Below, in pieces: positions 4,305 to 47,020 of a stretch of 64,000 nucleotides of DNA. Below the pieces are notes generated by a model. That model was given only the letters and a program-made list of their open reading frames with translations, was not told the DNA's origin and did no database searches. The position numbers and the translations under genes are program-made. Origin of the DNA: Patescibacteria group bacterium (GTDB lineage Bacteria > Patescibacteriota > UBA1384 > XYA2-FULL-43-10 > 1-14-0-10-43-13); assembly GCA_041671645.1 (NCBI GenBank), contig JBAZBD010000001.1, forward strand, positions 799,234 to 863,233, written 5' to 3'. Position 1 is the first letter of the stretch; every line of letters starts with the position of its first letter.

Positions 4305-4381
4305 TGGTCGGGGATGCGAGACTCGAACTCACGACCTCTCGGTCCCAAACCGAGCGCTCTACCAACTGAGCCAATCCCCGA
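4305..4381 (-). tRNA. tRNA-Pro (anticodon TGG)
   Basis: Reverse complement TCGGGGATTGGCTCAGTTGGTAGAGCGCTCGGTTTGGGACCGAGAGGTCGTGAGTTCGAGTCTCGCATCCCCGACCA. Cloverleaf folds. Anticodon loop TTTGGGA, 3' CCA encoded. Confidence 0.85.
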
Positions 4382-19300: not shown

Positions 19301-22300
19301 GTTTCGGTGGTGTCACCGTTTCGAGCCAGCGCTTTGACGGAATACAACGTGTTTGAGGTAAGATTTTTCAGGTAATTGACTGTGCCAGTTTCCCAATTTA
19401 CCTTGGTCTTCCAAACCTTTGATGCGCCGCAAGTGCCATCGCCCTGTAGCCATGAGTCTGGAGTTGCGTTGCAGGAAAGAGCAAACTCAGTCCCGGCTGG
19501 ATTTGAGTTGACATTGATTACCGCGGCCATATTATTTCCGCTGGCTGCGCTCCAATCGTAAGCAGTGACAGTGGGGGCATCTGGCGTATTAGCCAAAGTA
19601 TATTTCGGTGCAGCAAAGGCTGGATCAGAATCCCCGTCTGCATTGGTAGCGATCACTTTGGCGCAATATTGAGTATTGATAGTTTTGCCCGTAATGGCCT
19701 GGCTGGTAGCATCTGCGGCAGTGGTATAGTCTGGGGTGCCAGAATACGAAGCGGCGGAACAATCAGCGTTACCAGCGGCAGTGAAGACTTTGAATCCGGT
19801 CTCGTCGCTGGAATTATCAGTCCAAGTAACGGTAAATAAAGTAGAGTCAATCGAAGTGATCGCCACAGTGCTAGCCGCATTTGGCGGAGCCGAAGCGAAC
19901 CAGTTTACATTATTACCGGCGCTCGTAACGTTTGAACCTGAGTTATCGGTATAGATCGCAGTCGCGTTTGCATTTATCGAATCTTTCACTGAAGCATAAG
20001 AGATTGCTCTTGTGCTCTGAGGATCTATAGACCATGTAGAGCCATCAGAGGAAGAATTTAGAGAGATAACTCGACCAGAAGCTCCAGAAACCGTCAGCGC
20101 ACCTGCGATTGTTTGAGTTTTACTTGCCTCAAATTTCAAGGTTTTTGTTGTTGTCGCCCCAGGCTGTATTGTCACAGCGCTAAAAGTGGTATCGCCTGAA
20201 ATATCCTGGATGGAGCTATCTCCTCCATTGAAGACGACCGTGCCAGAATTGTGGGTGAAAGTACCAGCAGTGTGAGTGAAATCATTCGCAACGCTCATAG
20301 TGGTTGACGGAGCAGCGAAGGTACCGTCAGTTTGGATAAAACTACCCACAGTAACTGCATTTGCGCCAGAAGTGAAAGTGCCAGAGGAAACCGTTAGATT
20401 GTTCGAGGCGACAAGAGCGTCAGAAAGCGTAATTGATCCTGTCCCGCCCTGGCTCAAAACAATTTTTTTGTATGCATAGCCAGTAAAGTCACCAAGAGAA
20501 TACGGCGCTAGTCCTGTGTTTATCGTTGCAGCAACAACATTGGTTGATCCATTTATTTTGGAAACTGAATTTGCGCTGGAATTAGTAACCCAGACAAAAC
20601 CGCTTGCATCCACCGCAACACCGCAAGGAGCGCTTCCAACTGTGACTGTCGCAGCTACAGCATTTGTGGCTGTATTTATCTTGGTTACAGTATTTGTACC
20701 TAAATTTGAGACCCAAACAAAGCCGTTGGCATCAGCCGCAACGCCAAATGCATTCGTCCCCGCAGAAACAGTCGCTACAACTGTGTTTGTTGTTGGATTG
20801 ATTTTCGAAACATCACTTGTGCCATAATTCGGAACCCAGACAAAACCATTCAGATCAACTGCGACACCAGCAGGCTGTGTACCGACCGTAATAGTTGCCA
20901 CAACTGTGTCAGTCGTAGCATTGATTTTTGAAACTGTATTGCTATTAAAGTTTGCAACCCAGACAAAACCACTTGAATCGGCGGCGATTCCATAAGCACG
21001 CGCACCGACGTTCACTGTTGCTGCAATTGCATTTGTTGTCGGATTTATCTTGTACGCTACATTGTTCGTACCGCTAGCTACCCAAACAAACCCATTAGAA
21101 TCTATGGCCACGCCATAGGGATCAGAACCAATCGTAATCGAAGCATCTACGCTATTAGTGGAAGCATTAATTTTTGTTAAAGTACCGTTTGATCTGTTGG
21201 TTTGCCAAATAAACCCAGAATTATCAACAGCCACGCCAAATTCGGCCGCTCCGATTGTATGTGTAGTCACTGCGTTTGAAGATGTATCAATTTTTGTCGT
21301 CGTGGTTGCGCCAGAATTTGCAATCCACGCATAAGGAGTTGAAATCGTACCGGCCTGACCAGCCACAGTAATATTGTAAAAATCGTTGCTATTGCTAGCG
21401 ACTGTAGCAGCTGCTGTACCGTTGAAGTTTACCGTTGAAGTCCCTTTGGTGAATGTGCCACCAGTATTATTCCAGCTTCCACCAATATTTATTGTGTAAT
21501 TTCCCGCACTTAGAGTTCCCTCAGCAAGATTCAACGCTCCATCATCATTCAAATCCGCGCCGAGAGTAACCGTATCCGTGTAGCCAGTATTGATAGAGAG
21601 AGATTTGATGTGAGCAGTGAAACCGCTATCGAGAGTTGACGCCTTGGTCGAGGTGGAGTCAAAGACGACATCGCAAGCAGCATCAGGTACAGTATCAAGA
21701 GTCCAGTTCTCAGCTGTACTCCAATTGTTCCCTGTACCGCCGCCATCCCAAACACAACCAGGCAAAACGTCCCAATTGGTCACATTCACACCCTTGGTCC
21801 AGTTGGTCGGGCTTATTGGATTGGCCGCGTTATTCTTCGAATTTGAGACTGAAACATAGTCGACAGTCCACTGATTATCCATGCTCGTGCTTGGAGTGAT
21901 TTCCCATTGTGCACCAGTACCGTTGCGTTGAAGTGTTAACAAATTATCAGCGATACCGGTAGCGGTCCACTGGCCAGTCACAGTCTGATTCGTGCCTGGA
22001 TTGAAGCTGATCGTCCGAGCAGTCGAAGTCGTCATTGTAAAATTGTAAAATTCAGTCGAGCCGCCAACGACTTGGGCCAAGCTCGCAGAATTGAGCTCTA
22101 CGGTACCGTAGTTGTTGCTGAAAGTACCTCCGTCCCGAATAAAATCACCACTAACTTTCATGGTGCCGTTTGGAGCTGAAAAAGTACCAGTGTCCTGAGC
22201 AAAGTGTTTTGTCTCTACGTTGTAGCCATAAGCATTGAATGTATTCGCGAGCGTAATATTCAGCGAATGCTCGACAAGTAAAGTGTCCTGAGTCACGACT

Positions 22301-25300
22301 GTACCGTTAGCAGAGTTTGCAGATAATTGGTAGAACTGGTTGCTGCCGCATTTAACATAGTATGTGTTGGCAGAGTTGATATTGTTGATCCATACCGCGC
22401 CGTCGTTATTCACAAACGTACCACCGCCAGACATGTCGAAGAGGAAGTCAGTGGCAACATCATTGGCGTCAAGTGTTAGGACCTGGGCAGGCGCGTTAAA
22501 TGTACCGCCATAGAGATAAAAATTGTAACTTTTAATTGTAACGGTGGCTGTGTTGCTGTTGAAGGTGCCCGAGATAATAGTAGTAGAATAACCGTTCAAG
22601 ACCAAGGTTGAAGAATTGGAATTAAAAGTGCCGCCGTTTAAGTATAGTCCGCCTACTGTCACAGTGCCTGTACCAGCATTGAAAACAGCACCAGACTCAA
22701 CATAGAAGCTGCCCATGTCGCTAGAAGTAAATGTGGCAGTGGCATTGATTGTACCGTAAATATATGCGCCAGAAGAACCAACACTTGCACCTGGGGTATA
22801 AACTTTTGAAGCCGGGATATGAAGAGAATAACTAGTCGAGAGTACATTGGAACCATCGACACTGAACAAGATTTTTCCATTCGCGTCAGAACAATTATCA
22901 GCAGTCGCAAGAATAGTATTGGTCATCGGGCCAGAGTCTTCATAGGTGAGAGAAACCAGGTAAGAGTAAAGCGACAAGCCCGTGATGTCGCTAGAGCCGG
23001 CCGCAACAGTCACAATATTACCAGCTGAATAATTGCCATCTTCGAAGAAAATTGTAATAACTGTTCCGGCGGTAACACCGCCGGCGACGAAATCAAAAGC
23101 GCCATTCCCATCGGTTGCCATTGTCTGTTTTGCACCACCATTAACCGAGGCAGAAACATTTTGCCCAGAGCCAACATTCCCCTGCCCAATTCCCTGATAT
23201 GCAGTACCCGAGATATGACTGCCGAGCCAGTTGGTATTATTACTACCAGATGCAGTTGAGTTGGTCGGTGCGATTGGTCGAGAATTTAGATTGTTTGAAT
23301 CAGAATAAGTAACACGATCGACTGTCCAAGGCGACATCCCACTGGTGTTCGCATTTATCTTCCATTGGCCCGAGCCTGCAGTGCCGTTGAGCTTCATGAC
23401 AATGTTATTCCCAGCCGCGCCCTGTATTGTGAGCGCTCCAGAAATAGTCTGGGTTGAGTCTGCTGCAAAAGATAATGTCTTGCCAGCAGTGGCACAAGTA
23501 AAGCTAGAAGGAGCGTTGTCGCCAGAGATCACCGATTCTTGAGCAGTATCAAATGTCACGACATAAGGCGAGAAAGTGCCGCCAGCCGTCGTAGTCAGAT
23601 TGCGTCCGATTGTAATATCGCTACCTGAGAAATAAGCGCCTGAGCTGATAGCCGCATCGCGCCCAACAACAACTGCATAAGACGGCGATAAATAGCCGTT
23701 CGTCACAGAAAAGTCATTCGATACCGTAAAGCCAGCACTATAACCTACTGTCCCATCACCAGTGTTTGCGTAAATATAATTATAGATAGGCGGAACGTTT
23801 GTAAACGTATATGGATTGTAACTGCTATTAGCAGGAATTGAGCCAATTTTGAAAGTACCATTGGCGTTATTGAAAGTACCGCCAGAGATATTCCAAGTAT
23901 AATCACTATAATATCCGTTTGAGTCAGTTGTAATAGTCAATGTGCCCGAAGTAGATGTAAATGTACCACCGCTCATCGCAAATGATGCGTTTAGCATAGT
24001 AATCGTAGCAGTGTCACCATTAAATGTAGCACCGGTGCTAACCGTAATTTGATAATTTGATAAGGTCAAATTTGAAGTGTTAGCATTGAAAGTACCGCCA
24101 GAGAAAGTAGGAGTAGCCAAGATGTGAGTACCGCTACCAGCATTGAACTCGCCGCCAGCCTGATAAAATGAGCTGGAAAGAGTGAGGTTATTGGCTTCCA
24201 TCTCAACAATGCCATCGTTATACATACCATAGGCGTTTACATTGCCGCCAGGAGTAAACATCGTATACTGAGTGACATAAAGATCATACATAGTACTGAG
24301 AGTCGAACCAGAGACCGAGAAATCAGAGAAACAGCCGCAGTCATCAGCAATCGCTAAATCTGCGTTTGTAATAGCCCCTGCGGTATAGTCACTGTAAAGA
24401 GTGGTCTTGTATCGATACATATTGAGACCAGTTTTGTCTATGGCGGATTCAGGCAAATAGACGATACTGCCGGAATTGTAGCTCGGATCATTATCAATAA
24501 AGATGGTGACTGGTTTGCCAGCAACAAGCTCGACCCCGCTAAAGGAAAAAGTACCACCGGAGCCAGTGACGCCCGACATCTTTCCGCCACCGTTTGAGGT
24601 AATGGAAATCGGGATATCAGCGCCCAAAACGCTGCCGCCGATACCATCGTAAATTGTGCCGGAAATCGTATTGCCGCCAGAATATGTAACTGTTAATTTT
24701 GGATCGAGTGCCGTACCATCATTTTCTGCAAAGTAGCCATAGAAGTAGACACTATCATAATCGGCATTTATGGTTGGCTGACTATCTGCAGCATCAGCAG
24801 TGATTCTAAGACCAAGCTTCGTAACACCAGATGTACTAATAGCTGCTAGACCGCTTGCATTCATCGCGAAATCGTTGTATCCCATATCGTTGTAACTGGC
24901 GTACGGAATCGCAGATGCAAATGCAGTTGTTCCGAAAGTGTCGTAATCCGATGCTTGAAGCGAAGTGTTGCTAGAAGGGTTCGAGGAATACAGACCCAAA
25001 CTCGAATTCCAACCCGAAGGGTCACCCATCTTGTATGCGCCATATACGGAAAAATTGGCAGCTGAGATAGTCGCGGTGTTTGGGATGCTAGAAGTATCAA
25101 AGAGAAACGCACTTCTTGAGACGTAAGCCCAAGCAGCGTTGTTGCCAGCGGCGATTGCGGCCATATCACCGCTTGTTCCGTCATCAGCAGCGCTATATCC
25201 GCCAGACCTTATGGAAGCCCAGTCCCAATTGCTCCTACTGCTGTAAGTGTACCCATCAACAGACGTGACTTCAGTATGAGTATTTGGATAATAAATAACA

Positions 25301-27273
25301 TCAGTATCAATCTTCATGTCAGACTTTGGCGCTGTCTCTTGCCAGACAAAGCTTGAATCCAAGCTGCCTTCGATCTTTTTGGCTTCGACTGCGACAACCT
25401 TGTCTTGGCCAGTCTCATCTTTGACGACTTCACCAGTTGAGGCATTTACATCAAAAGCTTCTGGCTTGTCTCTGAATTTGAGATCGTCTTTGACGACGAC
25501 AGTCTTGTTTTCTTTGGTCTCTGGGTCGGTGACGACAACACTTCCTTCTTTCCCGCCATCAGTCTTGGTCACATTCCACTGGAAATTCTTCGGCGCGTCT
25601 TCGCCCTTGATTGTCTTCCAGAGACGTACACCATACTCAGAGATGTCAAATTCAAATTTGAGGTTACCGTCATCGGTTGTGACCTGGCTATCCTCAGCCA
25701 AAATCTGTGGTGCAATCCATTTGGAAAGCGCGTTTCTGGTATCTTCGGCCATCTTCTGGTCAGGAGTGTTGATATCGGCCCAAGCCACTTTGCTGTCAGT
25801 TCCCTTTGATTTTGATAAAACTGGATTGCCATCGACGTCTTTCAGGGTCACCGTATATTTGTCGCCAGTTTGTCGAGACTCGATTTCATAGCCAATCTTG
25901 TCTTTGAAAACTTTGACAGTAGAGGGCATCTGGTCAAAAAGCACATATTCGGGCGTATCGATGGAATGATTTGGGTTGATATCCTTCCAGCTTGAGTCAG
26001 CCTTGGCATAATCTTCTTTGTAGTGGACAAGGCCGGTATAGGACTCTAGAGTCTTGGTGCCGTTCTTGTTGTCGATTGTCTTGGTAGTCTCTGTGCGATC
26101 AGCGACAATCTCATTTGGATTGGCCAAAATCTGGTCAGTGCCGTTGTTTGAAATAGTAGTATTCTTCTGGCCCTCTTCTTTGGCGATGACAAATGAATAT
26201 TCCTGGCTCCATGGCGACCAAGCGCCAACAGAGTCCTGATAGCGAACGCGAGAGTAGTAGGTTCCTTCGGTGAGTAGAGTTGTTAGCTTGATATTTGTCA
26301 GTTCGTCTTTGGGCTCTGTCTTTGTCTGATCGAAGATCGGAGAAGCATAATCGCCAGATTTGGTCGAAATCTGCCACTCTGAAGCGTTTTGCGTGTCATT
26401 GTCGATATCAAGATAAGAGCTAGCGCTTAGGGTCTGAGTATTTCTAAACAAGCTTTTGTCAGCAGTGAACGAGAGACCGGTTGGTGTATTTGGAAGTCTA
26501 GAGTAGAGCAAGGTCAAAGAGTGCAAAACAGGCGAAAGACTAGCGTCGCCAGTCGAAAGGGTCAAGCGTATGTAGAGAGTCTCGGAATCGGCCATCTCAA
26601 GGACATCGCTCGAAAACAAAATGTTGTCAGTAGAAAATTCCTTTTTGACAGCACCGCCGTTGAGTACTTCGCTGGCCTCGATCGAAAGCCAATCGACAAA
26701 CTCACCCTTGGCCGGGGTGTAGGCCAAAATCGCGTTGCCAGATTCCTGGTACTGATTTTGTGTAATATCTGAGTCTAACTTCGCACTTTGGGAAAGAGAG
26801 AGAGAATTGGGGTTATCGGCTGTCGAAAGTCCAGAAATAGTCCAACTCTGCCAAGCTTCCTGTGTGCCCCAAGCCACTTGTGAAGAGGCGAAAGTGCGAA
26901 TGACGCTGGTAGCAAAAACGGAGGTGAAGATAAGGGCCACGATGCCAGACATGTAGCCGGAGAGTGAAACCCAGTGAATTGCAGAAGCAAACGGGCTCAT
27001 GTGCCACTTGTAGTACCATCTGAATTTCATCCGAAGATTGTTGTGGAGGGTGGCGAAGACTGGAAAAGTAACCTTGGTCGAACGCTGGATCAAAATGATT
27101 TCACGTTCAAGCTGAGCTTCCTTCTTTTGGAGCTCTTTTTGCTTCTCCGCGACAATCACCTCTTCTTTGGTGAGACCTTCAATCGCTGCCTTGTCCTGAG
27201 GCAACAAAGTGTACTTCTCCAAAGGTGCTTTTTTGGAAAAATGACTGCGGAAAAATTTGCGTAGGCCCTTCAA
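7390..27273 (-). CDS. Giant (6627 aa) membrane-anchored multi-domain cell-surface protein. Domains: FN3, YVTN β-propeller, DUF285/BspA-like 25-aa repeats, InlB-B/Flg_new repeats, β-helix-like Gly/Thr/Asn repeats, and a C-terminal TM segment with CarboxypepD_reg-like domains.
   Basis: Single uninterrupted 19.9-kb ORF. N-terminal ~100-aa cytoplasmic segment, then a TM helix (MSGIVALIFTSVFATSVI). YVTN repeats (…GFVWVAN…SKIN…) fall in nt ~20480-21400. DUF285-type repeats (…MF…FNQNIS.WNT..VT.M…) in nt ~15440-15900. Flg_new-type ~70-aa repeats in nt 14880-15300 and 16380-17220. Duplicated FN3 modules and CVWDG…NW modules. C-terminus (nt ~7390-8700) has TM helices and GxFxFxxxPGKYEI-type carboxypeptidase-regulatory-like domains. 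Confidence 0.85.
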   Translation of the reverse strand: MKGLRKFFRSHFSKKAPLEKYTLLPQDKAAIEGLTKEEVIVAEKQKELQKKEAQLEREIILIQRSTKVTFPVFATLHNNLRMKFRWYYKWHMSPFASAIHWVSLSGYMSGIVALIFTSVFATSVIRTFASSQVAWGTQEAWQSWTISGLSTADNPNSLSLSQSAKLDSDITQNQYQESGNAILAYTPAKGEFVDWLSIEASEVLNGGAVKKEFSTDNILFSSDVLEMADSETLYIRLTLSTGDASLSPVLHSLTLLYSRLPNTPTGLSFTADKSLFRNTQTLSASSYLDIDNDTQNASEWQISTKSGDYASPIFDQTKTEPKDELTNIKLTTLLTEGTYYSRVRYQDSVGAWSPWSQEYSFVIAKEEGQKNTTISNNGTDQILANPNEIVADRTETTKTIDNKNGTKTLESYTGLVHYKEDYAKADSSWKDINPNHSIDTPEYVLFDQMPSTVKVFKDKIGYEIESRQTGDKYTVTLKDVDGNPVLSKSKGTDSKVAWADINTPDQKMAEDTRNALSKWIAPQILAEDSQVTTDDGNLKFEFDISEYGVRLWKTIKGEDAPKNFQWNVTKTDGGKEGSVVVTDPETKENKTVVVKDDLKFRDKPEAFDVNASTGEVVKDETGQDKVVAVEAKKIEGSLDSSFVWQETAPKSDMKIDTDVIYYPNTHTEVTSVDGYTYSSRSNWDWASIRSGGYSAADDGTSGDMAAIAAGNNAAWAYVSRSAFLFDTSSIPNTATISAANFSVYGAYKMGDPSGWNSSLGLYSSNPSSNTSLQASDYDTFGTTAFASAIPYASYNDMGYNDFAMNASGLAAISTSGVTKLGLRITADAADSQPTINADYDSVYFYGYFAENDGTALDPKLTVTYSGGNTISGTIYDGIGGSVLGADIPISITSNGGGKMSGVTGSGGTFSFSGVELVAGKPVTIFIDNDPSYNSGSIVYLPESAIDKTGLNMYRYKTTLYSDYTAGAITNADLAIADDCGCFSDFSVSGSTLSTMYDLYVTQYTMFTPGGNVNAYGMYNDGIVEMEANNLTLSSSFYQAGGEFNAGSGTHILATPTFSGGTFNANTSNLTLSNYQITVSTGATFNGDTATITMLNASFAMSGGTFTSTSGTLTITTDSNGYYSDYTWNISGGTFNNANGTFKIGSIPANSSYNPYTFTNVPPIYNYIYANTGDGTVGYSAGFTVSNDFSVTNGYLSPSYAVVVGRDAAISSGAYFSGSDITIGRNLTTTAGGTFSPYVVTFDTAQESVISGDNAPSSFTCATAGKTLSFAADSTQTISGALTIQGAAGNNIVMKLNGTAGSGQWKINANTSGMSPWTVDRVTYSDSNNLNSRPIAPTNSTASGSNNTNWLGSHISGTAYQGIGQGNVGSGQNVSASVNGGAKQTMATDGNGAFDFVAGGVTAGTVITIFFEDGNYSAGNIVTVAAGSSDITGLSLYSYLVSLTYEDSGPMTNTILATADNCSDANGKILFSVDGSNVLSTSYSLHIPASKVYTPGASVGSSGAYIYGTINATATFTSSDMGSFYVESGAVFNAGTGTVTVGGLYLNGGTFNSNSSTLVLNGYSTTIISGTFNSNTATVTIKSYNFYLYGGTFNAPAQVLTLDANDVATDFLFDMSGGGTFVNNDGAVWINNINSANTYYVKCGSNQFYQLSANSANGTVVTQDTLLVEHSLNITLANTFNAYGYNVETKHFAQDTGTFSAPNGTMKVSGDFIRDGGTFSNNYGTVELNSASLAQVVGGSTEFYNFTMTTSTARTISFNPGTNQTVTGQWTATGIADNLLTLQRNGTGAQWEITPSTSMDNQWTVDYVSVSNSKNNAANPISPTNWTKGVNVTNWDVLPGCVWDGGGTGNNWSTAENWTLDTVPDAACDVVFDSTSTKASTLDSGFTAHIKSLSINTGYTDTVTLGADLNDDGALNLAEGTLSAGNYTINIGGSWNNTGGTFTKGTSTVNFNGTAAATVASNSNDFYNITVAGQAGTISTPYAWIANSGATTTTKIDTSSNAVTTHTIGAAEFGVAVDNSGFIWQTNRSNGTLTKINASTNSVDASITIGSDPYGVAIDSNGFVWVASGTNNVAYKINPTTNAIAATVNVGARAYGIAADSSGFVWVANFNSNTVSKINATTDTVVATITVGTQPAGVAVDLNGFVWVPNYGTSDVSKINPTTNTVVATVSAGTNAFGVAADANGFVWVSNLGTNTVTKINTATNAVAATVTVGSAPCGVAVDASGFVWVTNSSANSVSKINGSTNVVAATINTGLAPYSLGDFTGYAYKKIVLSQGGTGSITLSDALVASNNLTVSSGTFTSGANAVTVGSFIQTDGTFAAPSTTMSVANDFTHTAGTFTHNSGTVVFNGGDSSIQDISGDTTFSAVTIQPGATTTKTLKFEASKTQTIAGALTVSGASGRVISLNSSSDGSTWSIDPQSTRAISYASVKDSINANATAIYTDNSGSNVTSAGNNVNWFASAPPNAASTVAITSIDSTLFTVTWTDNSSDETGFKVFTAAGNADCSAASYSGTPDYTTAADATSQAITGKTINTQYCAKVIATNADGDSDPAFAAPKYTLANTPDAPTVTAYDWSAASGNNMAAVINVNSNPAGTEFALSCNATPDSWLQGDGTCGASKVWKTKVNWETGTVNYLKNLTSNTLYSVKALARNGDTTETSASSAGTATSAPAQPASLTHTANTASQISWDWADVAGASSYRLLKSSDDSDVGSPSASAYDQGSLSANTQYTNYVRAYNGVLGQASSTASAYSSIEAASGITFGTIATDSIQVSATGTFTNLSVGSSGLYITKSAGTGTGFASWNTNNNTLTNTGLSPNTQYSYTAQARNGDGETTAATDSISKYTLAAAPDAPTLAASSASVINIKLTDNSSTTYAIAVSADGGSTWNYVKHADGTNQASEDWQNYAAWGGASGFDNVSLSPNVQYTYKVKARNGDNTETAFSSTAAKYTLANVPSAPTVDATSSSSLTVKINQNSNPAGTNYAVYNDTLSKYVQADGSSDTSAVWQDYTTWGGASGVTNTGLTANTEYTYKVKAKNGDNVETALSSGTAQTTVDVAPTEPNTVAIGTLTTTGFTVTWTDASSNETGFKVYTAAGNADCSAASYSGTPDYTTAAGAISQAITSKSINTQYCAKVIATNAIGDSAPAYAAPKYTLAAAPDAPTLAASSASVINIKLTDNSSTTYAIAVSADGGSTWNYVKHADGTNQASEDWQNYAAWGGASGFDNVSLSPNVQYTYKVKARNGDNTETAFSSTAAKYTLANVPGTPTFGTVTSTTIPVLIAQNSNPSNTTYAIKVVYGATTKYVQANSTLGDSAVWQAYATWGSSKTVTGLTANTLYTFSVAATNGDSVATAYSATADQSTLAVYTLTYNSGANGSVIGSSPQTVDHGSSGSEVVATPAANYHFVKWSDNDSTNPVRTDTNVTANITTTASFAIDTHTLAYSAGANGSIVGTTPQTIDHGASGSEVTATPAANYHFVSWSDDVMTAARTDSNVAGDIAVTASFAIDTHTLTYSAGANGSIVGTTPQTVDHGSSGSEVTATPAANYHFVSWSDDVMTAARTDLNVADNISVTATFAINTYTLTYNAGSNGSVVGTSPQTVDYGANGSQVTATPAAGYYFVDWSDANTTAARTDTNVTVDITVTANFALQFLSRWDTSKTSSGSSTATQIHLPLESTGTYNFIVDWGDSSTSTITTWNQAETTHTYASGGIYDLKIGGTITGFRFNNAGDKLKLSQISQFGPLRLGNSDGYFSGTKNLKITATDVLNTTGTTTMKNSFRDSGIDTVPSMNSWDMSAVTDMYCMFESSSLFNQDISSWNTGAVTSMYAMFYNAFVFNQNIGSWNTTNVINMAYMFESAWAFNQNISSWNTGSVTTMREMFWNNSAFNQNISNWNTGAVTNMNQMFYSAAAFNQNLASWNVVNVTDMTNMFSSSALSNANYSNILIGWSAQAVKSNVTLGAATKKYTLGAAADGRAHLVSAHTWTITDGGPSAFVLTYSAGSGGSIVGITPQTVDYGANGSEVTATPAANYHFTSWSDGVLTAARTETNVITDKSVTASFAIDTHTLTYSAGANGSVVGSTPQTVNYGANGSQVTATPAANYHFVSWSDDVMTAARTDSNVAGDIAVTASFALDAPASATGVTITPTSSTTFNVTWTDNSSIETGYKVYTADGNADCSAASYSGTPDTTTSADAVSQAIASKSVNTQYCAKVVATNSGGDSAPAYAAPKYTLANVPTFTTVAGDYSDADLWHLDTTINASANPAGTNYYIQYSTNDGAGAGNFYDPNAMAWQTETTYLFKKDKDNVDLAANTQYWMKVKAKNGDNVETIYTSTSVADVTPPAAPTALNITNICTTKATTTWTAATGADSYTVSYGTDTAATNIGTLTTATTSKQITGLSNTTTYYWKASATSTANGTGPYAAPSSFETSNCGVESPDDFAGSAASTTQINWTWSDITSEETGYKVEDSAHTSLSGNLDAGSTSYNETPLSANTGYTRHVNVYNGGGSQDSNSDTVYTLAAVPGQPTVTTLSSSRIRITVDKNGNPNANTRYAIAVSADAGSTWNYVKNADGTTQVSEDWQLYADWGGDSGFANTGLTKNTNYIYKIKARNGDNVATDFGATNNTTTLDNFSVTISSDGSGSGSLDQVTQIVDAGADVTTTATAAASSDFVSWTGCDTVATNICYLTDVSADRSITAVFTIKTYTITINEAGTGTGDLDQVTQDVNYGANLTVVATADISSTFTGWSGDATGTGDASFTNITANKTITATFTIKTYTITINTTGTGMGDLDQATQTVNYGANLTVVATPAASSTFAGWSGDATGTGDASFTNITANKTITATFTIRSYTVTISKAGNGTGDLDQSTQVVTYGANLTVAATPAVSSDFTGWSGDAAGTGSAALTNITADKTITATFTLKTYTISSSAGSNGAISPLGDNLANYGTSPEYTITPSDGYYISNVVVDGSAISGTLPSSYTFTNVTATHSISVSFAANNTCVWDGQAADDNWSSADNWTANIIPSATCDVIFDATSTKDSTLDASFTSHIKSLSVNTGYSGTISANTTLNDDGDFTLNAGTFTANAQTLNIAGSLTMTADPTAVFNEGTSTINFNPTTTGKTITTNGQVLGNLIFNGVDAVIDPNVTLLNNNISLLANHTLTAGWTFQDNVSAQSLTANAGTLVDGGKSVNIAGDIIIANKVGVLASTGVWTQSSSGNIANPDMHNTFGSLVAAGSGITSTMTAGVSVGLGSGSAGAFTVGPGTLMGIGKAVIVYSRSNDSVTVNNLTADSRLGVLAIYPQIADMTQKAITLPSNFATTFSFQQDPTGILTATGNFNFGNSNVIVAKDRTTTPAGYVDMSTHNLTCKNLTIGSTSTNEYATIPGYLKLGSGTTNIAGSLSHGNASNIGNKLDLGSGTINVGGNWDTSNITVTPGTSTVDLTGTGTLQSKGYAAAPYDFYNLKLAHNGNTTNAISSVTTSNVLYTYAGGTLNGDNRYAFRMYKSDGDAVVNTGANFTASTFLVYRPSSDVTVAGQNFGQGSVAYSGVTNDVAITLSSDVTTTRDIYAYSITTGKRTTLNAVDNNLTARNLYLAYPVYGVGTANLGSGTHEFTNGIFRYTGSTDDTNVLNLESSSVSIGGNIDFTGMTVDPGTSTITLNGIGGQTVAGSNTFNNLSATASAARTISFASDTTQTVNGALSLNGTSAGNITLSRSGGTGTDQWKIDPKGSTSTSYLSVENSKNLSSAVIDPSNSINLGNTNKWFPPTGTISFSSARTNQIDQTLTLSSSTGTQMKVSNSPDFSGSEYETFSTSKSWTLAAPTVDGMKTVYLKVKDIDGDESPTASASIILDITAPSAPTNLTALSASASVSLSWVNPTDTDFANVAIFRSTEADFTPNIGTNKIAYTTLSSTATYIDSNVTSGVTYYYKVEAIDSVDNYSAASNQASGKPDSDKPTAPGKPTVSGKTNTIDNIEYYNQPAVTLTWPAATDTNSGILNYSIKICKTSGCANANDALSLSTLTSPSNSLTLDGASALADGTYYVRVAANDNLGNQFAWSEELTFILDTVLPSSLEKVEAFDISDRVNSDYRVMLRWKASTDTGSGLLGYTIVKNGNNIISESTSGVQVDASGYASYVDTVTPNTQFNYSVFSFDLAKNQTASMAAEFQTTTVVDCSGCVILPPDEPGEGTLEISDVKATPSELMSEKAQATITWKTTVPATTQVKYGASAPYPYTTEVDTGLNSFHTVVLSDLDFNKTYHFAVISKDKYGQTAESTDFTFATKDIFKEQSVLDTVISNLSGTAMKVRDIIGQMQIVGVNNSGQPVVFGIPTSTTTPASTAAVAGIAIISAAAAPLANAATLFSLPEYIRSLIFALASLGTKKSRRKWGRVLEVGTYIPIAQAKLTLFKLTQTFPGSFSKRPVANTYSDIEGNFSFVADPGKYEIEVTKDLYEVSEAPGFYKKGQIIEVKSEQEGLIVPNILLSMNDKSIAKRFSFIEKIGVVEKVLVYVSLGFLIFGTVSILNSLAHSHRDTVTLVSALLFPLLWYVNIKSFVKVSPWGNVLDSVNHSGVSLALVRIMDGEGKRLIRTAVTNEKGKFSTVLPKGKYKLLVAKAGYKPSDATHMDAQEKLQTVSRKIEIDRDK
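14880..15320. repeat. Tandem ~210-bp coding repeats (Flg_new/InlB-B-like) inside the giant gene, cluster 1
   Basis: Repeated DNA blocks, e.g. ...gttcgagccgcggtcatgacatcatcagaccag..., shared at about 85–95% with 16380-17220. Confidence 0.7.
16380..17220. repeat. Tandem ~210-bp coding repeats (Flg_new/InlB-B-like) inside the giant gene, cluster 2, four units
   Basis: Four consecutive units of about 90% identity at the DNA level (16380-16590, 16590-16790, 16790-16990, 16990-17220). Confidence 0.7.
17489..17828. repeat. 340-bp perfect direct repeat, copy A, encoding a duplicated FN3 module of the giant protein
   Basis: By my base-by-base reading, identical to 18413..18752. The flanks diverge immediately. 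Confidence 0.85.
18413..18752. repeat. 340-bp perfect direct repeat, copy B (924 bp from copy A)
   Basis: Identical to 17489..17828. Encodes APDAPTLAASSASVINIKLTDNSSTTYAIAVSADGGSTWNYVKHADGTNQASEDWQNYAAWGGASGFDNVSLSPNVQYTYKVKARNGDNTETAFSSTAAKYTLANVP twice. Confidence 0.85.
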
Positions 27274-27429
27274 CTTCCCTCCTGCGACAACCAGTCTTAT
27301 TATTATGAGTATATTTTAACAAGAGAAGTGAACTCGTTCAAGGGCAAAAGAGGGTCTTGGCTGTTGATAAGATACAGAAAAATAGAACAAATTTATTTGC
27401 CTCATATTTGTCTTTGCTAGACTAGATAA

Positions 27430-28158
27430 TTAGTAAATTTTCTTTTGCAAATTTTGACGGATTTTCCACGAATCAACTATCATTTTGAGCCCATCTTTCA
27501 ATGGGTTGACAGTCGAATGTGGATCATCGTGCCAGGTGATCCCCTCCTCCTTTATTTTGTATCCTAATTTTTTGGCAATAGCTAAAACTTCAATATCGAA
27601 AGAGAAGTCAAATATGGTCAGCTTCTCGAAAATCGCTCCGGCCGCCTCTTTCGAAAATAATTTGAAACCGCACTGTGTGTCTTTGATCCCAGGCGTCACA
27701 AGGGCTTGGATCATCCAGTTCAAAGCTCGGCTGCCCGCTCTTCGAGTGAATGACTGTGGGATGGCTAATTTGCCACCTTTGCAGTATCTGGAGCCGATGA
27801 CGACATCGTATTTATCGATATGGGCAAGAAGTTTGTCGACCTGTTCGATTGGGGTAGAATTATCAGCATCGGCGAATAACACATACTGGCCCTTTGCCAA
27901 TTTGATTCCGTCCTGCACTGCACCACCCTTCCCGCGGTTCTGTTCGCCTTCGTAGATCACCAGATTCGGAATTCTGTCCACAAAATGTTCGGCGGAGCCA
28001 ACCGTGTCATCAGGGGATGCATCAATTGCAACTATCGTTTCGACGATGAAGTCTTTGGTTTTAACATATTTTTCTATCGCTTCCAGAATAACGTGGATCC
28101 GTTTTTCTTCACGATATGCCGGAATCACAATTGATAAATAGATTTTCTCGTCCATCAA
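27430..28158 (-). CDS. GT2-family glycosyltransferase, dolichyl/polyprenyl-phosphate sugar synthase (DPM1/Ppm1-like)
   Basis: LSIVIPAYREE…; DAD motif (VLFADADNSTP); QCGFK. Soluble, ~240 aa, typical of polyprenol-P-hexose synthases. Overlaps the next gene by 4 nt. Confidence 0.7.
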   Translation of the reverse strand: MMDEKIYLSIVIPAYREEKRIHVILEAIEKYVKTKDFIVETIVAIDASPDDTVGSAEHFVDRIPNLVIYEGEQNRGKGGAVQDGIKLAKGQYVLFADADNSTPIEQVDKLLAHIDKYDVVIGSRYCKGGKLAIPQSFTRRAGSRALNWMIQALVTPGIKDTQCGFKLFSKEAAGAIFEKLTIFDFSFDIEVLAIAKKLGYKIKEEGITWHDDPHSTVNPLKDGLKMIVDSWKIRQNLQKKIY

Positions 28159-29993
28159 AGTCCTATTTTGTGATTAATATTTGGTCTGGGATAATCAAGA
28201 TATTTGATCGGATACGGAGATTTGGGCGGATGTTGCTTCAAGTCTTCCGGAGTAATGTTGTAGACCAGGATAGAGCCACCAATAATCGCCTTTGGCTTAA
28301 TATCGTCAAGCCAGTTGTACGACCATTTGCCCTCTTCTGGACCACGTAATTTTGACAATTGATAGAAAGTCGCAGAGACAGCCAACCAGCCCGTAGTGGG
28401 TCCGTAGCTAGAATGCCAGTCTGTACGACTTGGCAAGTAATAGGTGGGGACTGAACCGAAATAATCCACCTTAATATTCGTGATATTATTGTCGCCTACG
28501 TATTTCTTGAGTCGGAGAAAGTCCTGGCCCCAATCAAGTGAAGAGTCAACTAGCCTGGTGTAGCGCTTGTCTTTGGGGGTGAGTTCATTGAAATACGCGA
28601 TGAAATTAGGGAAATTTGAGATTGTTGAAACAGCTAAATATGCCAGAAGAATAACTAGGGCGATCTGCATCCGACCCAGTTTCCGCCAATTCCAGCTGGG
28701 ATTCACAATTGGATAAATTGCATAACCGATCATCAATAATACGAAGGGAATCGTTGGCATGAGATGACGAATACCAATGTTCAGCGAACCCTGCAATGTG
28801 ATAGCCCAGTAAATAACCCATGGCACGATTAGGAGCGAGAGCATCCATTTGATTTCTTTTTGCTTTGGCCAATTACGAATTATCGAATAAACAGAAAAGA
28901 AAAACATAGCTATGATTGGTAAGGGAGTTTTGAGCAACCAAGCGACCGGGAAATACCAGGGGATTGATTTGTCAGAAAGATGACCCCAAATAAAGGTTGC
29001 ATTGCCACCGCCAACACGGCCGATAACTAGGAATATTCCCAGGATATAGTGGCCAAGTGCTCGCAAGTACGGATTATTTTCAAATAAGTGGAGAAAGTTT
29101 CTAAGGGGCAAAGTCCTCGCATCGGACGTCATATTTGTGTCTATCAATTGATGCTCGATAGCAGGCGGAGTCTTCCAAACCAAAGGTAGGTAAACCAACC
29201 AGACGACCACCAATGAGATCAGACTGACATATACTAGAGGCATGAAATTTGCAACAAAATTATGCCGGAAGCCTTTCTCCTTTCTATCCAAAACGGCCCG
29301 AACTACCACGAGAATGAAGAAAATCGGGAACAGCAAAACCCCAGAAAACTTTAGGAGTTCAGCTATCCCGAGCGCAACTCCGGCAAGCAAAATGCTCGAC
29401 AAAGTTTTCTTAGTGACCGCCTTGTCAAAGGCATACGTCGCCAAGACAAAACCAAATGCCGCCGCTACGTCGGTAGTGACTAGCCGGCCGTGAGCGATGA
29501 CGTCAGGGTAAAGCGCATATAGGAAAAGGATGACTACGCCGACTTTCCAGCCGAAGAGCTCAATCGCCCACTTGAAGAGCAACAGGCCCAGCCCAATCAT
29601 GAGCAGCATCATCGGAAGTCTGGCAAGAGAGAATACTTCGGCAGGATCGTTGCCTTGACGATAAATCATGCTCCAGCCCGATTCCCATTGGTTTATGTCT
29701 TTGAAGCTTGAATCGTCCTCTGGACCCTTGATCTTACTATTCATGACGAGAGGAACACCGGCCAGAACTTTCGCCAGAGGCGGATGCTCTGGATTCAATC
29801 GATAATCTTGATCTTTTAAGTAGGTATAGCCAGCGGGAATATGTGCGATTTCATCGACAATAGCAGAATCACCCGGCGTGTTTCCGATCCCTCGGGAGGA
29901 AAATAGGGCGAGCAAGAACATAAACAGGAGAATCCCCGCAGGCACGAAATATTTATATTGTATTTTACTGCAGATCCTCTTTAGCAATTTCAT
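28155..29993 (-). CDS. GT-C-fold, polyprenyl-phosphate-sugar-dependent glycosyltransferase (PMT/ArnT-like, family 39/83)
   Basis: 612 aa with more than 10 TM helices. Conserved first-loop acidic motif DEIAHIPAGYTY and NPEHPPLAKVL, as in protein O-mannosyltransferases and ArnT. Paired with a DPM1-like GT2. Confidence 0.55.
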   Translation of the reverse strand: MKLLKRICSKIQYKYFVPAGILLFMFLLALFSSRGIGNTPGDSAIVDEIAHIPAGYTYLKDQDYRLNPEHPPLAKVLAGVPLVMNSKIKGPEDDSSFKDINQWESGWSMIYRQGNDPAEVFSLARLPMMLLMIGLGLLLFKWAIELFGWKVGVVILFLYALYPDVIAHGRLVTTDVAAAFGFVLATYAFDKAVTKKTLSSILLAGVALGIAELLKFSGVLLFPIFFILVVVRAVLDRKEKGFRHNFVANFMPLVYVSLISLVVVWLVYLPLVWKTPPAIEHQLIDTNMTSDARTLPLRNFLHLFENNPYLRALGHYILGIFLVIGRVGGGNATFIWGHLSDKSIPWYFPVAWLLKTPLPIIAMFFFSVYSIIRNWPKQKEIKWMLSLLIVPWVIYWAITLQGSLNIGIRHLMPTIPFVLLMIGYAIYPIVNPSWNWRKLGRMQIALVILLAYLAVSTISNFPNFIAYFNELTPKDKRYTRLVDSSLDWGQDFLRLKKYVGDNNITNIKVDYFGSVPTYYLPSRTDWHSSYGPTTGWLAVSATFYQLSKLRGPEEGKWSYNWLDDIKPKAIIGGSILVYNITPEDLKQHPPKSPYPIKYLDYPRPNINHKIGL

Positions 29994-31500
29994 TTTGTCC
30001 CTCCAAAATATTTGACCTCTTTGTTGATTTCGTAGTCACTCTGAAAACTTCAAGATATTTACCAAACATCAGCCGAGTCTGTGATTCCATAGCTGGGATG
30101 GAAGAAAAGAAAATGTTGGAAATCGGCATTACAAATGGGGTCAGGCACCAGTCGAGTAGAATTCGACCAAATGGTTTCCTGCCTTGTCTCTTCGGCATCA
30201 GAAGGGTAGAAATCACAAGTGTGACAATCATACCGAGCCATGCGATAGTCAGCATTTTGATATACACTCCGCGAAAGCTATATGCCAAAATGTCTCCCTG
30301 AAAGGCAGAGCCGAAAAAAACCGGAATCCAGGCTGAAGTGATCAGGACCAACGATGTCGTCGACCAGGAGATATGTGATTCCCATAATATCAAAGCGTTC
30401 GCCCACCTGTCAAAAAACGGTATTTTGTGGTTTCCTATCGTATTTTCCATCACAAAAGGGATGTCTGACACACCCCAAGCCCAACGTTTTTTCTGCAAAT
30501 ACTGCTCACGCATAGTATTCCTGAAAGTGTCAGCCAAGACTGCGTCCTGATAGATTGGAGTATACATCGGTACCACTTCGTGACAGCCGTCAAACCGATA
30601 ATAAGTTCGCCAAAACTGATGGCCGTCTTCCACAATCGTCTTGGTCGACCAGAAATCTGTTTGGACTAGTGCGGCTAGACTCTGTGCATGGGCAGAGAAA
30701 TTACGAAGCCGAGAAGGTCTTGTCGTAACAATTAATTGCCAAAAAGACGAACCCATCGCCATCAACCGATTCATCATCGGCACGTCCCAAATATTGTTGA
30801 AAAACATAGGCAACGGCTGAAAACTTTTGTGGATGGGATCGGGATCAGTGACATATTTATAAGTCAGATCGAGGAGATAATTTTTGTCCATGATATGGTC
30901 CGAATCCATCGTTGTCACGACCACATTTTCGTAAGGAATTTTCTCTTTGTCGATTTGTTCGAGTACCTTTCTGGCCGCGTAGGTGATGTTCCCACCTTTA
31001 CCGATCACTTCACCGGGAATATCCTTGGGATGCATTACGGTCATGAAAAGATGAAACTTCTTGCCGTGCTTTTCGGTTAATATTTTGGAATACTCCCCTG
31101 CCCGTTCTTTGTCGCGCTCCTCCGTCCCCAAGACATAAATAACATGATCCTGCGGGTAATTCGAAGTGAGAACGGAACGAATAGATGATTCTAGAATTTC
31201 AATATCTTCCTTGTATGTCGGAACAATCACAAGATGATATATCTCCTTCCATTTGCCGTCCGTCTGGTCTAATTTTGCTTGCCAATCAGTTTTCATGTCA
31301 CGTCGATAATTTCGATAACCCAGGATTAACCGATAAGACATCACAAATGTTCTTATCAACCAGTAAGTTAGATAAAAAATCATGTAAATAGCAAATACTT
31401 TTGGCGAGACTAGGACAACGACGAAAGGCAAAAGCAATATTGACCAAGAAATCAAACCGGGGAGTACTTCAAACAATCTTTTGTATTTCCAGGTGTTCAT
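29965..31500 (-). CDS. Membrane-embedded processive GT2 glycosyltransferase (cellulose/chitin/hyaluronan-synthase-like; D,D,D,QxxRW)
   Basis: TMDSDH (DxD), VEDGHQFW (ED), QKKRWAWG (QxxRW). TM helices at both termini. Confidence 0.6.
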   Translation of the reverse strand: MNTWKYKRLFEVLPGLISWSILLLPFVVVLVSPKVFAIYMIFYLTYWLIRTFVMSYRLILGYRNYRRDMKTDWQAKLDQTDGKWKEIYHLVIVPTYKEDIEILESSIRSVLTSNYPQDHVIYVLGTEERDKERAGEYSKILTEKHGKKFHLFMTVMHPKDIPGEVIGKGGNITYAARKVLEQIDKEKIPYENVVVTTMDSDHIMDKNYLLDLTYKYVTDPDPIHKSFQPLPMFFNNIWDVPMMNRLMAMGSSFWQLIVTTRPSRLRNFSAHAQSLAALVQTDFWSTKTIVEDGHQFWRTYYRFDGCHEVVPMYTPIYQDAVLADTFRNTMREQYLQKKRWAWGVSDIPFVMENTIGNHKIPFFDRWANALILWESHISWSTTSLVLITSAWIPVFFGSAFQGDILAYSFRGVYIKMLTIAWLGMIVTLVISTLLMPKRQGRKPFGRILLDWCLTPFVMPISNIFFSSIPAMESQTRLMFGKYLEVFRVTTKSTKRSNILEGQNEIAKEDLQ

Positions 31501-31832
31501 TGGTGAGATAGATAATAAATTTCCAAAATCATTACAAGTGCTACTGCCAAGATATTGCCGATGAAGAGGAGATAGCCAATTTCGCGTTCTCTTTTGAAGG
31601 AAGAAAAGGCCAAAACAGTGTTGAGAATCAGAATGATGAAAAGCAGTTTGATTGGGTAAACACCGATTCTGATATAGACAAAAATGTCTGGAGAGCTAAG
31701 CAAGAAATGCCAGATAAGATAATCTACAAACGACCAGATTAGGGAAATAGAAAACAAATACCGATTCACGATATCGTCAACCAGAAATTCCTTCAGGAAC
31801 GGACCAAGGGTGGTTATATATTTTTTCATATT
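31497..31832 (-). CDS. Small 4-TM membrane protein, GtrA-like (possible polyprenyl-P-sugar flippase/accessory)
   Basis: About 111 aa from MKKYITTLGPF. Hydrophobic 4-helix pattern, and positioned first in the glycosylation operon. Family assignment is tentative. Confidence 0.35.
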   Translation of the reverse strand, partial: NMKKYITTLGPFLKEFLVDDIVNRYLFSISLIWSFVDYLIWHFLLSSPDIFVYIRIGVYPIKLLFIILILNTVLAFSSFKREREIGYLLFIGNILAVALVMILEIYYLSHQ

Positions 31833-31842
31833 TTTTGTATTT

Positions 31843-31918
31843 TGGAGCCGCATTCGAGATTCGAACTCGAGACCTCCACTTTACGAAAGTGTTGCTCTAC
31901 CAGCTGAGCTAAAGCGGC
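31843..31918 (-). tRNA. tRNA-Thr (anticodon CGT)
   Basis: Reverse complement GCCGCTTTAGCTCAGCTGGTAGAGCAACACTTTCGTAAAGTGGAGGTCTCGAGTTCGAATCTCGAATGCGGCTCCA. Anticodon loop TTCGTAA. One U·U mismatch in the acceptor stem. CCA encoded. Confidence 0.75.
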
Positions 31919-31919
31919 A

Positions 31920-31993
31920 TGGAGCGGGTAGTGGGAATCGAACCCGCGACTCATCCTTGGGAAGGATACATTTTACCACTAAACTATACCCGC
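31920..31993 (-). tRNA. tRNA-Gly (anticodon CCC)
   Basis: Reverse complement GCGGGTATAGTTTAGTGGTAAAATGTATCCTTCCCAAGGATGAGTCGCGGGTTCGATTCCCACTACCCGCTCCA. Anticodon loop TTCCCAA. Only 1 nt separates it from tRNA-Thr. Confidence 0.8.
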
Positions 31994-33252: not shown

Positions 33253-33294
33253 TCAGCCAAAGGCTGATCAGCCTCTGGCTGACAGTTGGAAAAT

Positions 33295-33573
33295 ATGCAT
33301 TTTGTTTATTTCTTAAAAAGTATTACCAACGGAAAGTATTACGTCGGTCAGACAGATCGCGAACCTTCTGTACGTTTACAAGAGCATAATTCTGGCCATA
33401 ATTCATGGACAAAAAAGAATGGCCCCTTCGAACTGATTTACCACGAAAGTTATGCATGCAAAGAAGATGCTAGGAGGAGAGAAAACTTTTATAAATCTGG
33501 TATTGGCAAAAGGGTTATGAAAGCGATAATCGAGATATTTGTTAATAAGGAAAAACCAACTACGGGGGCGTAG
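33295..33573 (+). CDS. Small GIY-YIG domain protein (UPF0213/YhbQ-like nuclease family)
   Basis: Motif F-VYFLKS…NGKYYVGQT…R…EHN matches the GIY-YIG signature. About 93 aa. Its last 10 nt overlap the 5' end of tRNA-Asp. Confidence 0.6.
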   Translation: MHFVYFLKSITNGKYYVGQTDREPSVRLQEHNSGHNSWTKKNGPFELIYHESYACKEDARRRENFYKSGIGKRVMKAIIEIFVNKEKPTTGA

Positions 33574-33640
33574 TTCAGTTGGTTAGAACGCCACACTGTC
33601 ACTGTGGAGGTCGCCGGTTCGAGCCCGGTCGCTCCCGCCA
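33564..33640 (+). tRNA. tRNA-Asp (anticodon GTC)
   Basis: GGGGGCGTAGTTCAGTTGGTTAGAACGCCACACTGTCACTGTGGAGGTCGCCGGTTCGAGCCCGGTCGCTCCCGCCA. Anticodon loop CTGTCAC. CCA encoded. Confidence 0.85.
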
Positions 33641-39828: not shown

Positions 39829-40398
39829 CTACACAAGCCCACCCCAGCTGGAGGTCAAGAAGACTATCGTGATGGCTAGCACAGTAATCGTCGCGTAAGT
39901 AAAAAACTTGTTGTCTGTATGCTTAGCCAGAACAGTATAGCAAAATCCGACGAAAAGATAAGAAACCGCTGCGATTATCAATCCCTGGCTAGTTGGATCG
40001 ACCAAAAAATAACTCAATATCAGGAAAACCTCGAGGATAATCAGAGAAAAAAGTACAAGATAAATCAACCGCTTGTCTCCGAGAATACCGATCTTTTGCT
40101 CGACATATGTGAATAAGTATGAAAATATGATCAGTGTTCCGATCATCGCGAACCAAAGGGGCAGGGACATTTGATATAAGACAGAATATAGGGCATGGCC
40201 AGATGTAAATGAAAGCAAGATTAGCGTAAATATTGGTGAAAGTTCCCGCCATATGACAAAAAGACCAAAAACAGAAATCCCGATCATCGTATACAAAAGA
40301 AAATCGCTAGACACATTTTGGGCATAGGTGAAAACACCCCAGGCCAAAATGGCTGTGAGCATAGATTTTCTAGTAAATTGACTCTTCAGAAAAGCCAT
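39829..40398 (-). CDS. Hypothetical polytopic membrane protein (189 aa, about 6 TM)
   Basis: Hydrophobic profile only. Its start overlaps the stop of the LCP gene (ATGA). Confidence 0.45.
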   Translation of the reverse strand: MAFLKSQFTRKSMLTAILAWGVFTYAQNVSSDFLLYTMIGISVFGLFVIWRELSPIFTLILLSFTSGHALYSVLYQMSLPLWFAMIGTLIIFSYLFTYVEQKIGILGDKRLIYLVLFSLIILEVFLILSYFLVDPTSQGLIIAAVSYLFVGFCYTVLAKHTDNKFFTYATITVLAITIVFLTSSWGGLV

Positions 40399-47018: not shown

Positions 47019-47020
47019 TT

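Follow-up and report, generated by a model that had tools for sequence, protein, structure and literature searches.

A conserved four-gene glycosyltransferase operon of Berkelbacteria as a candidate core pathway for a cell-envelope glycan

The window analysed here is a 64,000-nucleotide stretch of the genome of a Patescibacteria group bacterium (assembly GCA_041671645.1, contig JBAZBD010000001.1, positions 799,234 to 863,233). Within it, a module of four overlapping genes encodes a small membrane protein, a membrane glycosyltransferase (GT) of family GT2 (gt2L), a GT of the GT-C class, and a second, soluble GT2 (dpm). The first-pass annotation, noting a gene for a giant surface protein directly downstream, had proposed a dedicated O-glycosylation system for that protein. 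The reading we favour instead, and to which we give about an even chance, is that the module belongs to the core gene set of the Berkelbacteria as an operon for a cell-envelope glycan and is not an accessory of the giant gene. This reading draws on a conserved gene block bounded by tRNA genes, on the motifs and the BcsA and hyaluronan synthase fold matches of gt2L, and on fusions of GtrA domains to the GT-C protein in related lineages. It also draws on the presence of gt2L and the small gene beside the GT-C gene in Doudnabacteria, on FtsQ, Mur ligase and FemAB contexts elsewhere in the Candidate Phyla Radiation (CPR), on a wall-polymer ligase of the LytR-CpsA-Psr (LCP) family encoded in the window, and on the restriction of the giant gene to one subclade. 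The envelope of CPR bacteria (Patescibacteria) is chemically almost unknown, yet it is the interface for host attachment and dependence.

The four genes are all located on the minus strand, in the order small membrane protein gene (31497..31829, 110 residues, WC227_04310), gt2L (29965..31500, 511 residues), GT-C gene (28155..29993, 612 residues, PMT_2 type) and dpm (27430..28158, 242 residues). Consecutive open reading frames (ORFs) overlap by 4, 29 and 4 bp, which bears out the co-oriented, overlapping arrangement described earlier. Since homologues of the four genes are 84-87% identical in the closest relative and 54-75% identical across many Berkelbacteria, all four ORFs are real genes. The longest ORF of the small gene spans 31853..31497 and would encode 118 residues. 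Given its first ATG (31853) falls inside the tRNA-Thr gene (31843-31918), the true start is placed at M9, position 31829, which yields the 110-residue protein on which the NCBI and JGI annotations agree. For the GT-C gene, the JGI call is a protein of 588 residues starting at M25, which would remove most of the first transmembrane (TM) helix (residues 13-34 in the AlphaFold2 model). Hence, the ATG at 29993, which creates the 29-bp overlap with gt2L, is the more likely start, and it fits the homologues better. A look-up of the exact 588-residue sequence returned no record.

The dpm product matches PF00535 with 92 bits, has no predicted TM or hydrophobic segment, and finds its best PDB match in the Pyrococcus furiosus dolichyl-phosphate-mannose synthase 5mlz (3e-14), followed by TarS, GtrB (5ekp) and, lower, ArnC. 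These values agree with the earlier description of a soluble GT2 resembling DPM1 and Ppm1. The best NCBIfam matches are AglJ, dolichyl-phosphate-hexose transferase, PgfS and PpgS, none of which exceeds 62 bits against equivalog cut-offs of 182-529. On this evidence from sequence, dpm resembles the polyprenyl-phosphate hexose (or N-acetylhexosamine) synthases, such as DPM1, GtrB, AglJ and PgfS. Unlike GtrB, CsbB and ArnC, each of which carries two TM anchors, dpm has no TM anchor.

The GT-C protein passes the Pfam thresholds of PF13231 (36.2 bits, cut-off 26.1) and PF02366 (26.2 bits, cut-off 22.7), the latter over profile positions 83-233 only. About eleven TM helices are predicted. Among 26 GT-C homologues, the first outer loop after TM1 presents D47 conserved in at least 90% of the sequences and invariant E48, H51, P53 and G55; together with the Pfam matches, this upholds the earlier claim of a first-loop acidic motif of the PMT/ArnT type. 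A C-terminal alpha/beta domain at approximately residues 470-600, with the invariant motif DSSLDWGQD, is extracytoplasmic by topology. The AlphaFold2 model presents a mean predicted local distance difference test (pLDDT) of 86.9, and Foldseek ranks Pmt4 first (E 4.8e-8), followed by STT3, AglB, ArnT and Pmt1/2. The comparison with PMT and ArnT that had been suggested for this protein therefore gives a GT-C_A fold that matches both, with no preference between the acceptor classes. Taking the Pfam matches, the loop and the model together, the protein is classified as a GT-C_A-fold glycosyltransferase of the PMT_2 type with an outward acidic motif.

It is possible that this enzyme is a GT39 protein O-mannosyltransferase, given a match to PF02366 that is partial and a fold that does not discriminate between acceptors. 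Like the actinobacterial Ppm1/Pmt (GT39) pair and the streptococcal PgfS/PgfM1 and GtrB/PgtC2 pairs, the module combines a soluble or peripheral synthase with a GT-C enzyme bearing a first-loop DE motif; the PF02366 match and the leading position of Pmt4 belong to the same likeness. Unlike Ppm1/Pmt, the protein has no PMT_4TMC domain, possesses its own conserved C-terminal alpha/beta outer domain, and presents no profile match to a solved PMT. The Pfam scan found neither PMT_4TMC nor MIR domains in it. When all PDB sequences were searched, the family profile gave no match, PMTs included, and the single-sequence search yielded chance matches only. CPR bacteria have a Gram-positive-like envelope in which lipid A is not expected, and this sets the module apart from ArnC/ArnT, which transfers 4-amino-4-deoxy-L-arabinose from its undecaprenyl-phosphate (Und-P) carrier to lipid A; the sequence identity to that system is only about 11%.

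In one Berkelbacteria clade, the GT-C protein carries an N-terminal GtrA domain (PF04138) and reaches approximately 750-771 residues (e.g., P0108 and P0116; loci L016, L017, L019, L022 and L027). By its domain composition, it is a predicted flippase-transferase fusion. In the window itself, a tblastn search with two GtrA domains produced chance-level matches only (E >1). The fusions bring the module close to the three-component systems GtrA/GtrB/GtrC, CsbB/GtcA/YfhO and GacI/GacJ/GacK/GacL, as well as those of the SccN type, which likewise pair a GT2 resembling Und-P-sugar synthases with a GT-C enzyme bearing an outward acidic motif. The first two serve O-antigen glucosylation and lipoteichoic-acid glycosylation, respectively, and the Gac and SccN-type systems serve the addition of rhamnopolysaccharide side chains. 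Their donor logic matches that of the module, and their acceptors are glycopolymers (10.1101/2024.05.05.592596). Unlike these systems, however, the module and the window contain no GtrA gene, the GT-C enzyme is of the PMT_2 type and not YfhO or GtrC, and the operon adds a BcsA-like synthase and a small partner. The biochemical logic proposed at first, in which a polyprenyl-phosphate-sugar synthase, an outward-facing GT-C enzyme and a GT2 of the processive type act together, fits the evidence and is strengthened by the GtrA fusions.

The gt2L protein presents the motifs K168xxN171, D199xD201, E291D292, Q336xxRW340 and, at residues 486-491, FRVTTK, which corresponds to FxVTxK. In the family alignment, which has 24% mean identity, D199 and D201 are conserved in 100% of the sequences, E291 in 87%, D292 in 97%, Q336 and R339 in 100%, and W340 in 90%; within FxVTxK the values are 67% for F, 82% for V, 90% for T and 100% for K. 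Together, D, DxD, (T)ED, QxxRW and FxVTxK follow a BcsA-like spacing. FxVTxK is the gating-loop motif that contacts uridine diphosphate (UDP) in BcsA and CesA and is also found in the beta-glucan synthase RiGT2, while hyaluronan and chitin synthases have WGTR/KG in its place (PMC10592267, PMC10374906). The best Foldseek match of the gt2L model is BcsA 4p00 (E 8.4e-7, TM-score 0.46, for a model with pLDDT 73), and hyaluronan synthases and PcManGT are among the other top matches.

The protein had first been described as a processive QxxRW GT2. The motifs support this description, and FxVTxK adds to it, although the window protein itself remains under the Pfam cut-offs (21.7 against 23.3 bits for PF00535, and 17.7 against 27 for PF13641) and, unlike 21 of 40 diverse members of its family, does not match PF13632. 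In searches of all PDB sequences, the family profile found no match, and the single-sequence search found chance matches only. Motifs and model together nevertheless argue that gt2L is a membrane GT2 of the cellulose-synthase-like processive type. It shares with BcsA, CesA and RiGT2 the series of motifs, and its top fold matches are BcsA and the hyaluronan synthases. It differs from BcsA in being only 511 residues long, with approximately five TM helices, no PilZ domain and no BcsB; from BcsA, CesA and RiGT2 in the placement of FxVTxK at the very C-terminus, beyond the final TM helix; and from all three, too, in the sub-threshold GT2 scores and the lack of a PDB sequence match just described.

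The small protein has two to three predicted TM helices and conserved P59 and N70, and it matches no Pfam or NCBIfam family; its relatives match no Pfam family either. It had initially been described as a GtrA-like protein with four TM helices, an identity that does not hold: no PF04138 match is found even at E 0.1, no NCBIfam family is matched, alignment of its family profile against the GtrA profile with hhalign gives a probability of 0.3%, and there are two to three TM helices, not four. In addition, it coexists with true GtrA domains, as it is present alongside the GtrA-fused GT-C protein in all five loci listed above. Since it is kept where GtrA is fused to GT-C, it is regarded as a partner of gt2L, not as a substitute for a flippase.

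In all 19 Berkelbacteria-type loci checked, including those with GtrA-fused GT-C, the small gene lies directly upstream of gt2L, and the two are also paired in Doudnabacteria (L043 and L049) with no dpm nearby. A role as membrane anchor of dpm, in the manner of DPM3 or GacJ, was also considered and is less likely, given the protein accompanies gt2L in loci without a nearby dpm. A homologue search returned only 14 close relatives, with no fusions and no names among them. We therefore describe the small protein as a putative new family that is the constant partner of a synthase-like GT2.

IcaA/IcaD and PgaC/PgaD each consist of a GT2 synthase and a small membrane subunit. The gt2L pair resembles them in that a QxxRW-type membrane GT2 is encoded beside an apparently obligatory small polytopic membrane protein. 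It differs in having no detectable sequence relationship to them and in the reversed gene order, with the small gene first.

Berkelbacteria-type loci, in which the GT-C protein is 49-83% identical to that of the window, retain the order small gene, gt2L, GT-C, dpm with overlapping stop and start codons wherever there is enough flanking sequence. Their usual arrangement is tRNA-Gly, tRNA-Thr, module, tRNA-Pro. The pair tRNA-Gly(ccc)-tRNA-Thr(cgt) precedes the module in almost every relative (L001-L098) and constitutes a conserved 5' boundary; in the window it occupies 31843..31993 on the minus strand, directly upstream of the small gene. At the other end, tRNA-Pro(tgg) follows dpm at a distance of 0.05-1.2 kb in ten loci (L001, L015, L016, L017, L021, L022, L027, L091, L093 and L098). 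A tRNA promoter may drive transcription of the module, which the tRNA-Gly-tRNA-Thr pair directly precedes.

Beyond the Berkelbacteria, the GT-C family is distributed across the CPR, with at least 570 loci in each of two collections. Outside Berkelbacteria (L028-L169), the GT-C relatives are 33-41% identical to the window protein. Among 123 such loci, 77 have a second PMT_2 GT-C gene of approximately 535 residues in tandem with and ahead of the GT-C relative, and in 75 FtsQ adjoins it head-to-tail; Mur ligase, FemAB, seryl-tRNA-synthetase and sometimes GtrA genes are also found nearby. In Doudnabacteria, the small protein gene and gt2L adjoin the GT-C gene in divergent orientation, again with no dpm close by.

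Read as a core envelope-glycan operon, the module would work in four steps. First, dpm, whose enzyme class is recognizable, would charge polyprenyl phosphate, on the inner side of the membrane, with a hexose or N-acetylhexosamine taken from a nucleotide sugar. The lipid-linked sugar would then be flipped, a step for which the GT-C protein of sister lineages carries a fused GtrA flippase domain. On the outside, the GT-C enzyme would transfer the sugar to an acceptor by means of its Asp-Glu motif and its outer C-terminal domain. Finally, gt2L and its small partner would polymerise a glycan with beta linkages, most probably a glucan built from a UDP-sugar, and pass the chain through the membrane. 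The GT-C enzyme would most probably act on this polymer, or else on some other glycan that is part of the wall or linked to lipid, so that the product would be a surface glycopolymer or lipoglycan decorated with side chains. Streptococci use an Und-P-sugar donor of this kind for the side chains of their wall polysaccharides (10.1101/2024.05.05.592596).

All four proteins are strongly conserved: alignment columns are on average 72% identical for gt2L and 54% for GT-C, the conserved outer domain included. This fits an invariant acceptor better than the fast-evolving giant proteins, whose N-termini share only 47% identity within the subclade. The side remark in the first-pass annotation that the module might build a lipoglycan is closer to the genomic context than its claim of a system dedicated to a protein.

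Taken further, and only tentatively, the module may represent a minimal cellulose-synthase-like machine of Berkelbacteria and some other CPR bacteria, composed of a synthase with five TM helices and a C-terminal FxVTxK together with a new subunit of two to three TM helices. Its beta-glycan would be decorated on the outside by a CPR-specific GT-C enzyme using a polyprenyl-phosphate sugar, giving these ultrasmall episymbiotic bacteria a wall glycopolymer or lipoglycan that is universal to the lineage and was previously unknown. All catalytic components come from known superfamilies; their combination is uncharacterised, as are the CPR-specific GT-C subfamily and the pairing of a compact BcsA-like synthase with a small subunit. 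In the literature, we found nothing specific on GT39 enzymes in CPR bacteria or Patescibacteria, on glycosylation of giant proteins, or on a CPR cellulose synthase. The operon is a conserved and clearly delimited candidate for a major surface-glycan pathway of Berkelbacteria, with parts that can be expressed and assayed.

Several observations weigh against a single envelope-glycan operon. The GT-C fold is about equally close to ALG12, Pmt4, ArnT and STT3, i.e., to enzymes acting on lipid-linked oligosaccharides (ALG12), proteins (Pmt4, STT3) and lipids (ArnT), and therefore does not single out the acceptor. Likewise, as the dpm matches lie far under the equivalog cut-offs, they define a GT2 resembling polyprenyl-phosphate-sugar synthases without revealing its sugar specificity. 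The gt2L model is of moderate quality, with a pLDDT of 73 that falls below 50 around residues 252-316, and the protein has approximately five TM helices against eight in BcsA. Moreover, among the 123 loci from outside Berkelbacteria, only 4 have gt2L close to the GT-C gene, and distantly related gt2L genes occur by themselves. Given the two families are rarely neighbours in most CPR phyla, each can work independently. Finally, within the window's subclade the giant gene has stayed adjacent to the module over considerable divergence.

A rival explanation is a general protein O-glycosylation system, in which dpm and GT-C would act like Ppm1/Pmt, PgfS/PgfM1 or GtrB/PgtC2 and modify Ser and Thr residues on a wide range of secreted and membrane proteins as they appear on the outside of the cell; the giant protein may be among them. 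The polymer made by gt2L and its partner would then be unrelated. We regard this explanation as somewhat unlikely. It accommodates the GT-C protein well, which passes both the PF02366 and PF13231 thresholds, bears the first-loop DE motif and has Pmt4 as its best Foldseek match, and the conservation of the family across the CPR would suit a housekeeping protein modification. Precedent exists as well, since O-glycosylation of extracytoplasmic proteins by GT-A and GT-C enzymes is established in Gram-positive bacteria (10.1101/2024.05.05.592596; PMC5856776). However, the lack of PMT_4TMC and MIR domains and the failure of the GT-C profile to find a PMT among PDB sequences speak against it, the tight translational coupling to a polysaccharide-synthase-like gene is left unexplained, and the giant protein has none of the disordered poly-Ser/Thr tracts typical of known bacterial substrates.

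The independence of the two halves outside Berkelbacteria raises another explanation, namely that one operon holds two unrelated pathways. The small protein and gt2L would then make an exopolysaccharide or glycolipid, while dpm and GT-C would, like ArnC/ArnT or CsbB/YfhO, modify some other envelope molecule, for instance peptidoglycan or lipid II, a membrane lipid or a polymer resembling teichoic acid. This would account for halves that are usually unlinked, for the company that GT-C relatives keep with FtsQ, Mur ligase and FemAB, and for ArnT being among the top fold matches. Yet gene order is strictly conserved and the reading frames overlap throughout Berkelbacteria, and the GT-C gene and gt2L have been juxtaposed independently in Doudnabacteria; we consider two separate pathways unlikely.

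The region downstream of dpm was compared among relatives. In the window, dpm and the giant gene (7390-27273, minus strand) are separated by an intergenic region of 156 bp (27274..27429), measured from the end of dpm to the TTG start at 27273, close to the 150 bp first estimated. The region contains a promoter-like TTGAAC-17-TAAAAT element (27341..27313) and a GGAGG Shine-Dalgarno sequence preceding the TTG, both of which are consensus matches only. The giant gene encodes a repeat protein of 6627 residues, adhesin-like in appearance, with 11.4% Ser, 13.9% Thr and 7.8% Asn, which confirms the Ser/Thr/Asn-rich composition reported for this ORF. It is predicted to be extracellular, with TM anchors at both ends, and its domains (fn3, NHL, ten Flg_new_2 repeats and DUF285) indicate a folded repeat protein. 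No poly-Ser/Thr tracts were found in it: the maximum is 52% Ser/Thr per 25 residues, and the longest Ser/Thr run is 5. Disordered tracts of this kind are characteristic of the substrates known for GT-C O-glycosylation in streptococci (10.1101/2024.05.05.592596).

The gene following dpm was identifiable in 24 distinct loci of the Berkelbacteria type, the window included. In five of these (the window, L004/5, L090, L092 and L011, the last with the start only) it is a giant gene, and in the remaining 19 dpm is followed by unrelated small genes. Asked whether the module always neighbours giant surface proteins, the comparison thus answers no, and the claim of a dedicated system fails a test that the first-pass annotation had itself set. 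In the GT-C tree, the five giant-gene loci form one clade with L099 and the truncated L010; in L099 the gene directly after dpm is not a giant gene. Only the window's subclade has N-termini orthologous to that of the giant protein.

Between dpm and the tRNA-Pro(tgg) gene (4305..4380, minus strand), the window contains the giant gene, a gene for an fn3-like protein of 239 residues (6667-7386) and a MacB-type ABC transporter gene (4447-6486), all on the minus strand. Given tRNA-Pro normally flanks dpm, this block is best explained as a lineage-specific insertion that displaced the ancestral 3' neighbour by about 23 kb. The MacB-type transporter is a single protein of 679 residues with ATPase, MacB_PCD and FtsX domains, and could be an export or partner system of the giant protein. 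The adjacency of module and giant gene appears, from this comparison, to have arisen by insertion beside a tRNA gene in one sub-lineage. Adjacency to the giant gene is hence a weak ground for inferring dedicated glycosylation, and its origin is explained.

A module dedicated to the adjacent 6627-residue protein is accordingly very improbable. In its favour, the two are co-oriented and 156 bp apart, the adjacency is kept in all readable members of the subclade except L099, the protein is extracellular with 25% Ser+Thr and an anchor at each end, and in Streptococcus mutans the adhesins Cnm and WapA need the pgf genes for their glycosylation (10.1101/2024.05.05.592596; PMC5856776). Against it, 19 other loci keep the module without a giant neighbour, the ancestral neighbour is tRNA-Pro with the giant, fn3 and ABC genes inserted, the giant gene has a promoter-like element of its own, L099 lacks it at this position, and the GT-C family occurs across the CPR in cell-division and wall-synthesis contexts.

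Elsewhere in the window, further envelope-glycan or sugar-metabolism genes are encoded on the minus strand at 40398-41822, 45894-48196 and 48214-50279. They comprise the LCP-family protein, two GT4 glycosyltransferases, an S6PP-like phosphatase and a GalT-like uridylyltransferase. In locus L008, a QueH-RuvB-RuvA-GT4-GT4 block directly adjoins the module.

GT-C genes 51-53% identical to that of the window were also found in bins labelled delta proteobacterium and Brocadiia (L026, contig CAVWHX010000005.1, and L023). L026 has no gt2L or dpm nearby, and the contig of L023 is only 2.5 kb long. Mis-binning and lateral transfer are both possible explanations for their presence in such bins.

Upstream of the module, on the plus strand, a small ORF at 33286-33573 encodes a GIY-YIG nuclease (PF01541, 1.5e-15) and overlaps a tRNA-Asp gene (33564-33640) by about 10 bp. 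An ORF that looks similar by eye is located between the tRNAs and the module in L018.

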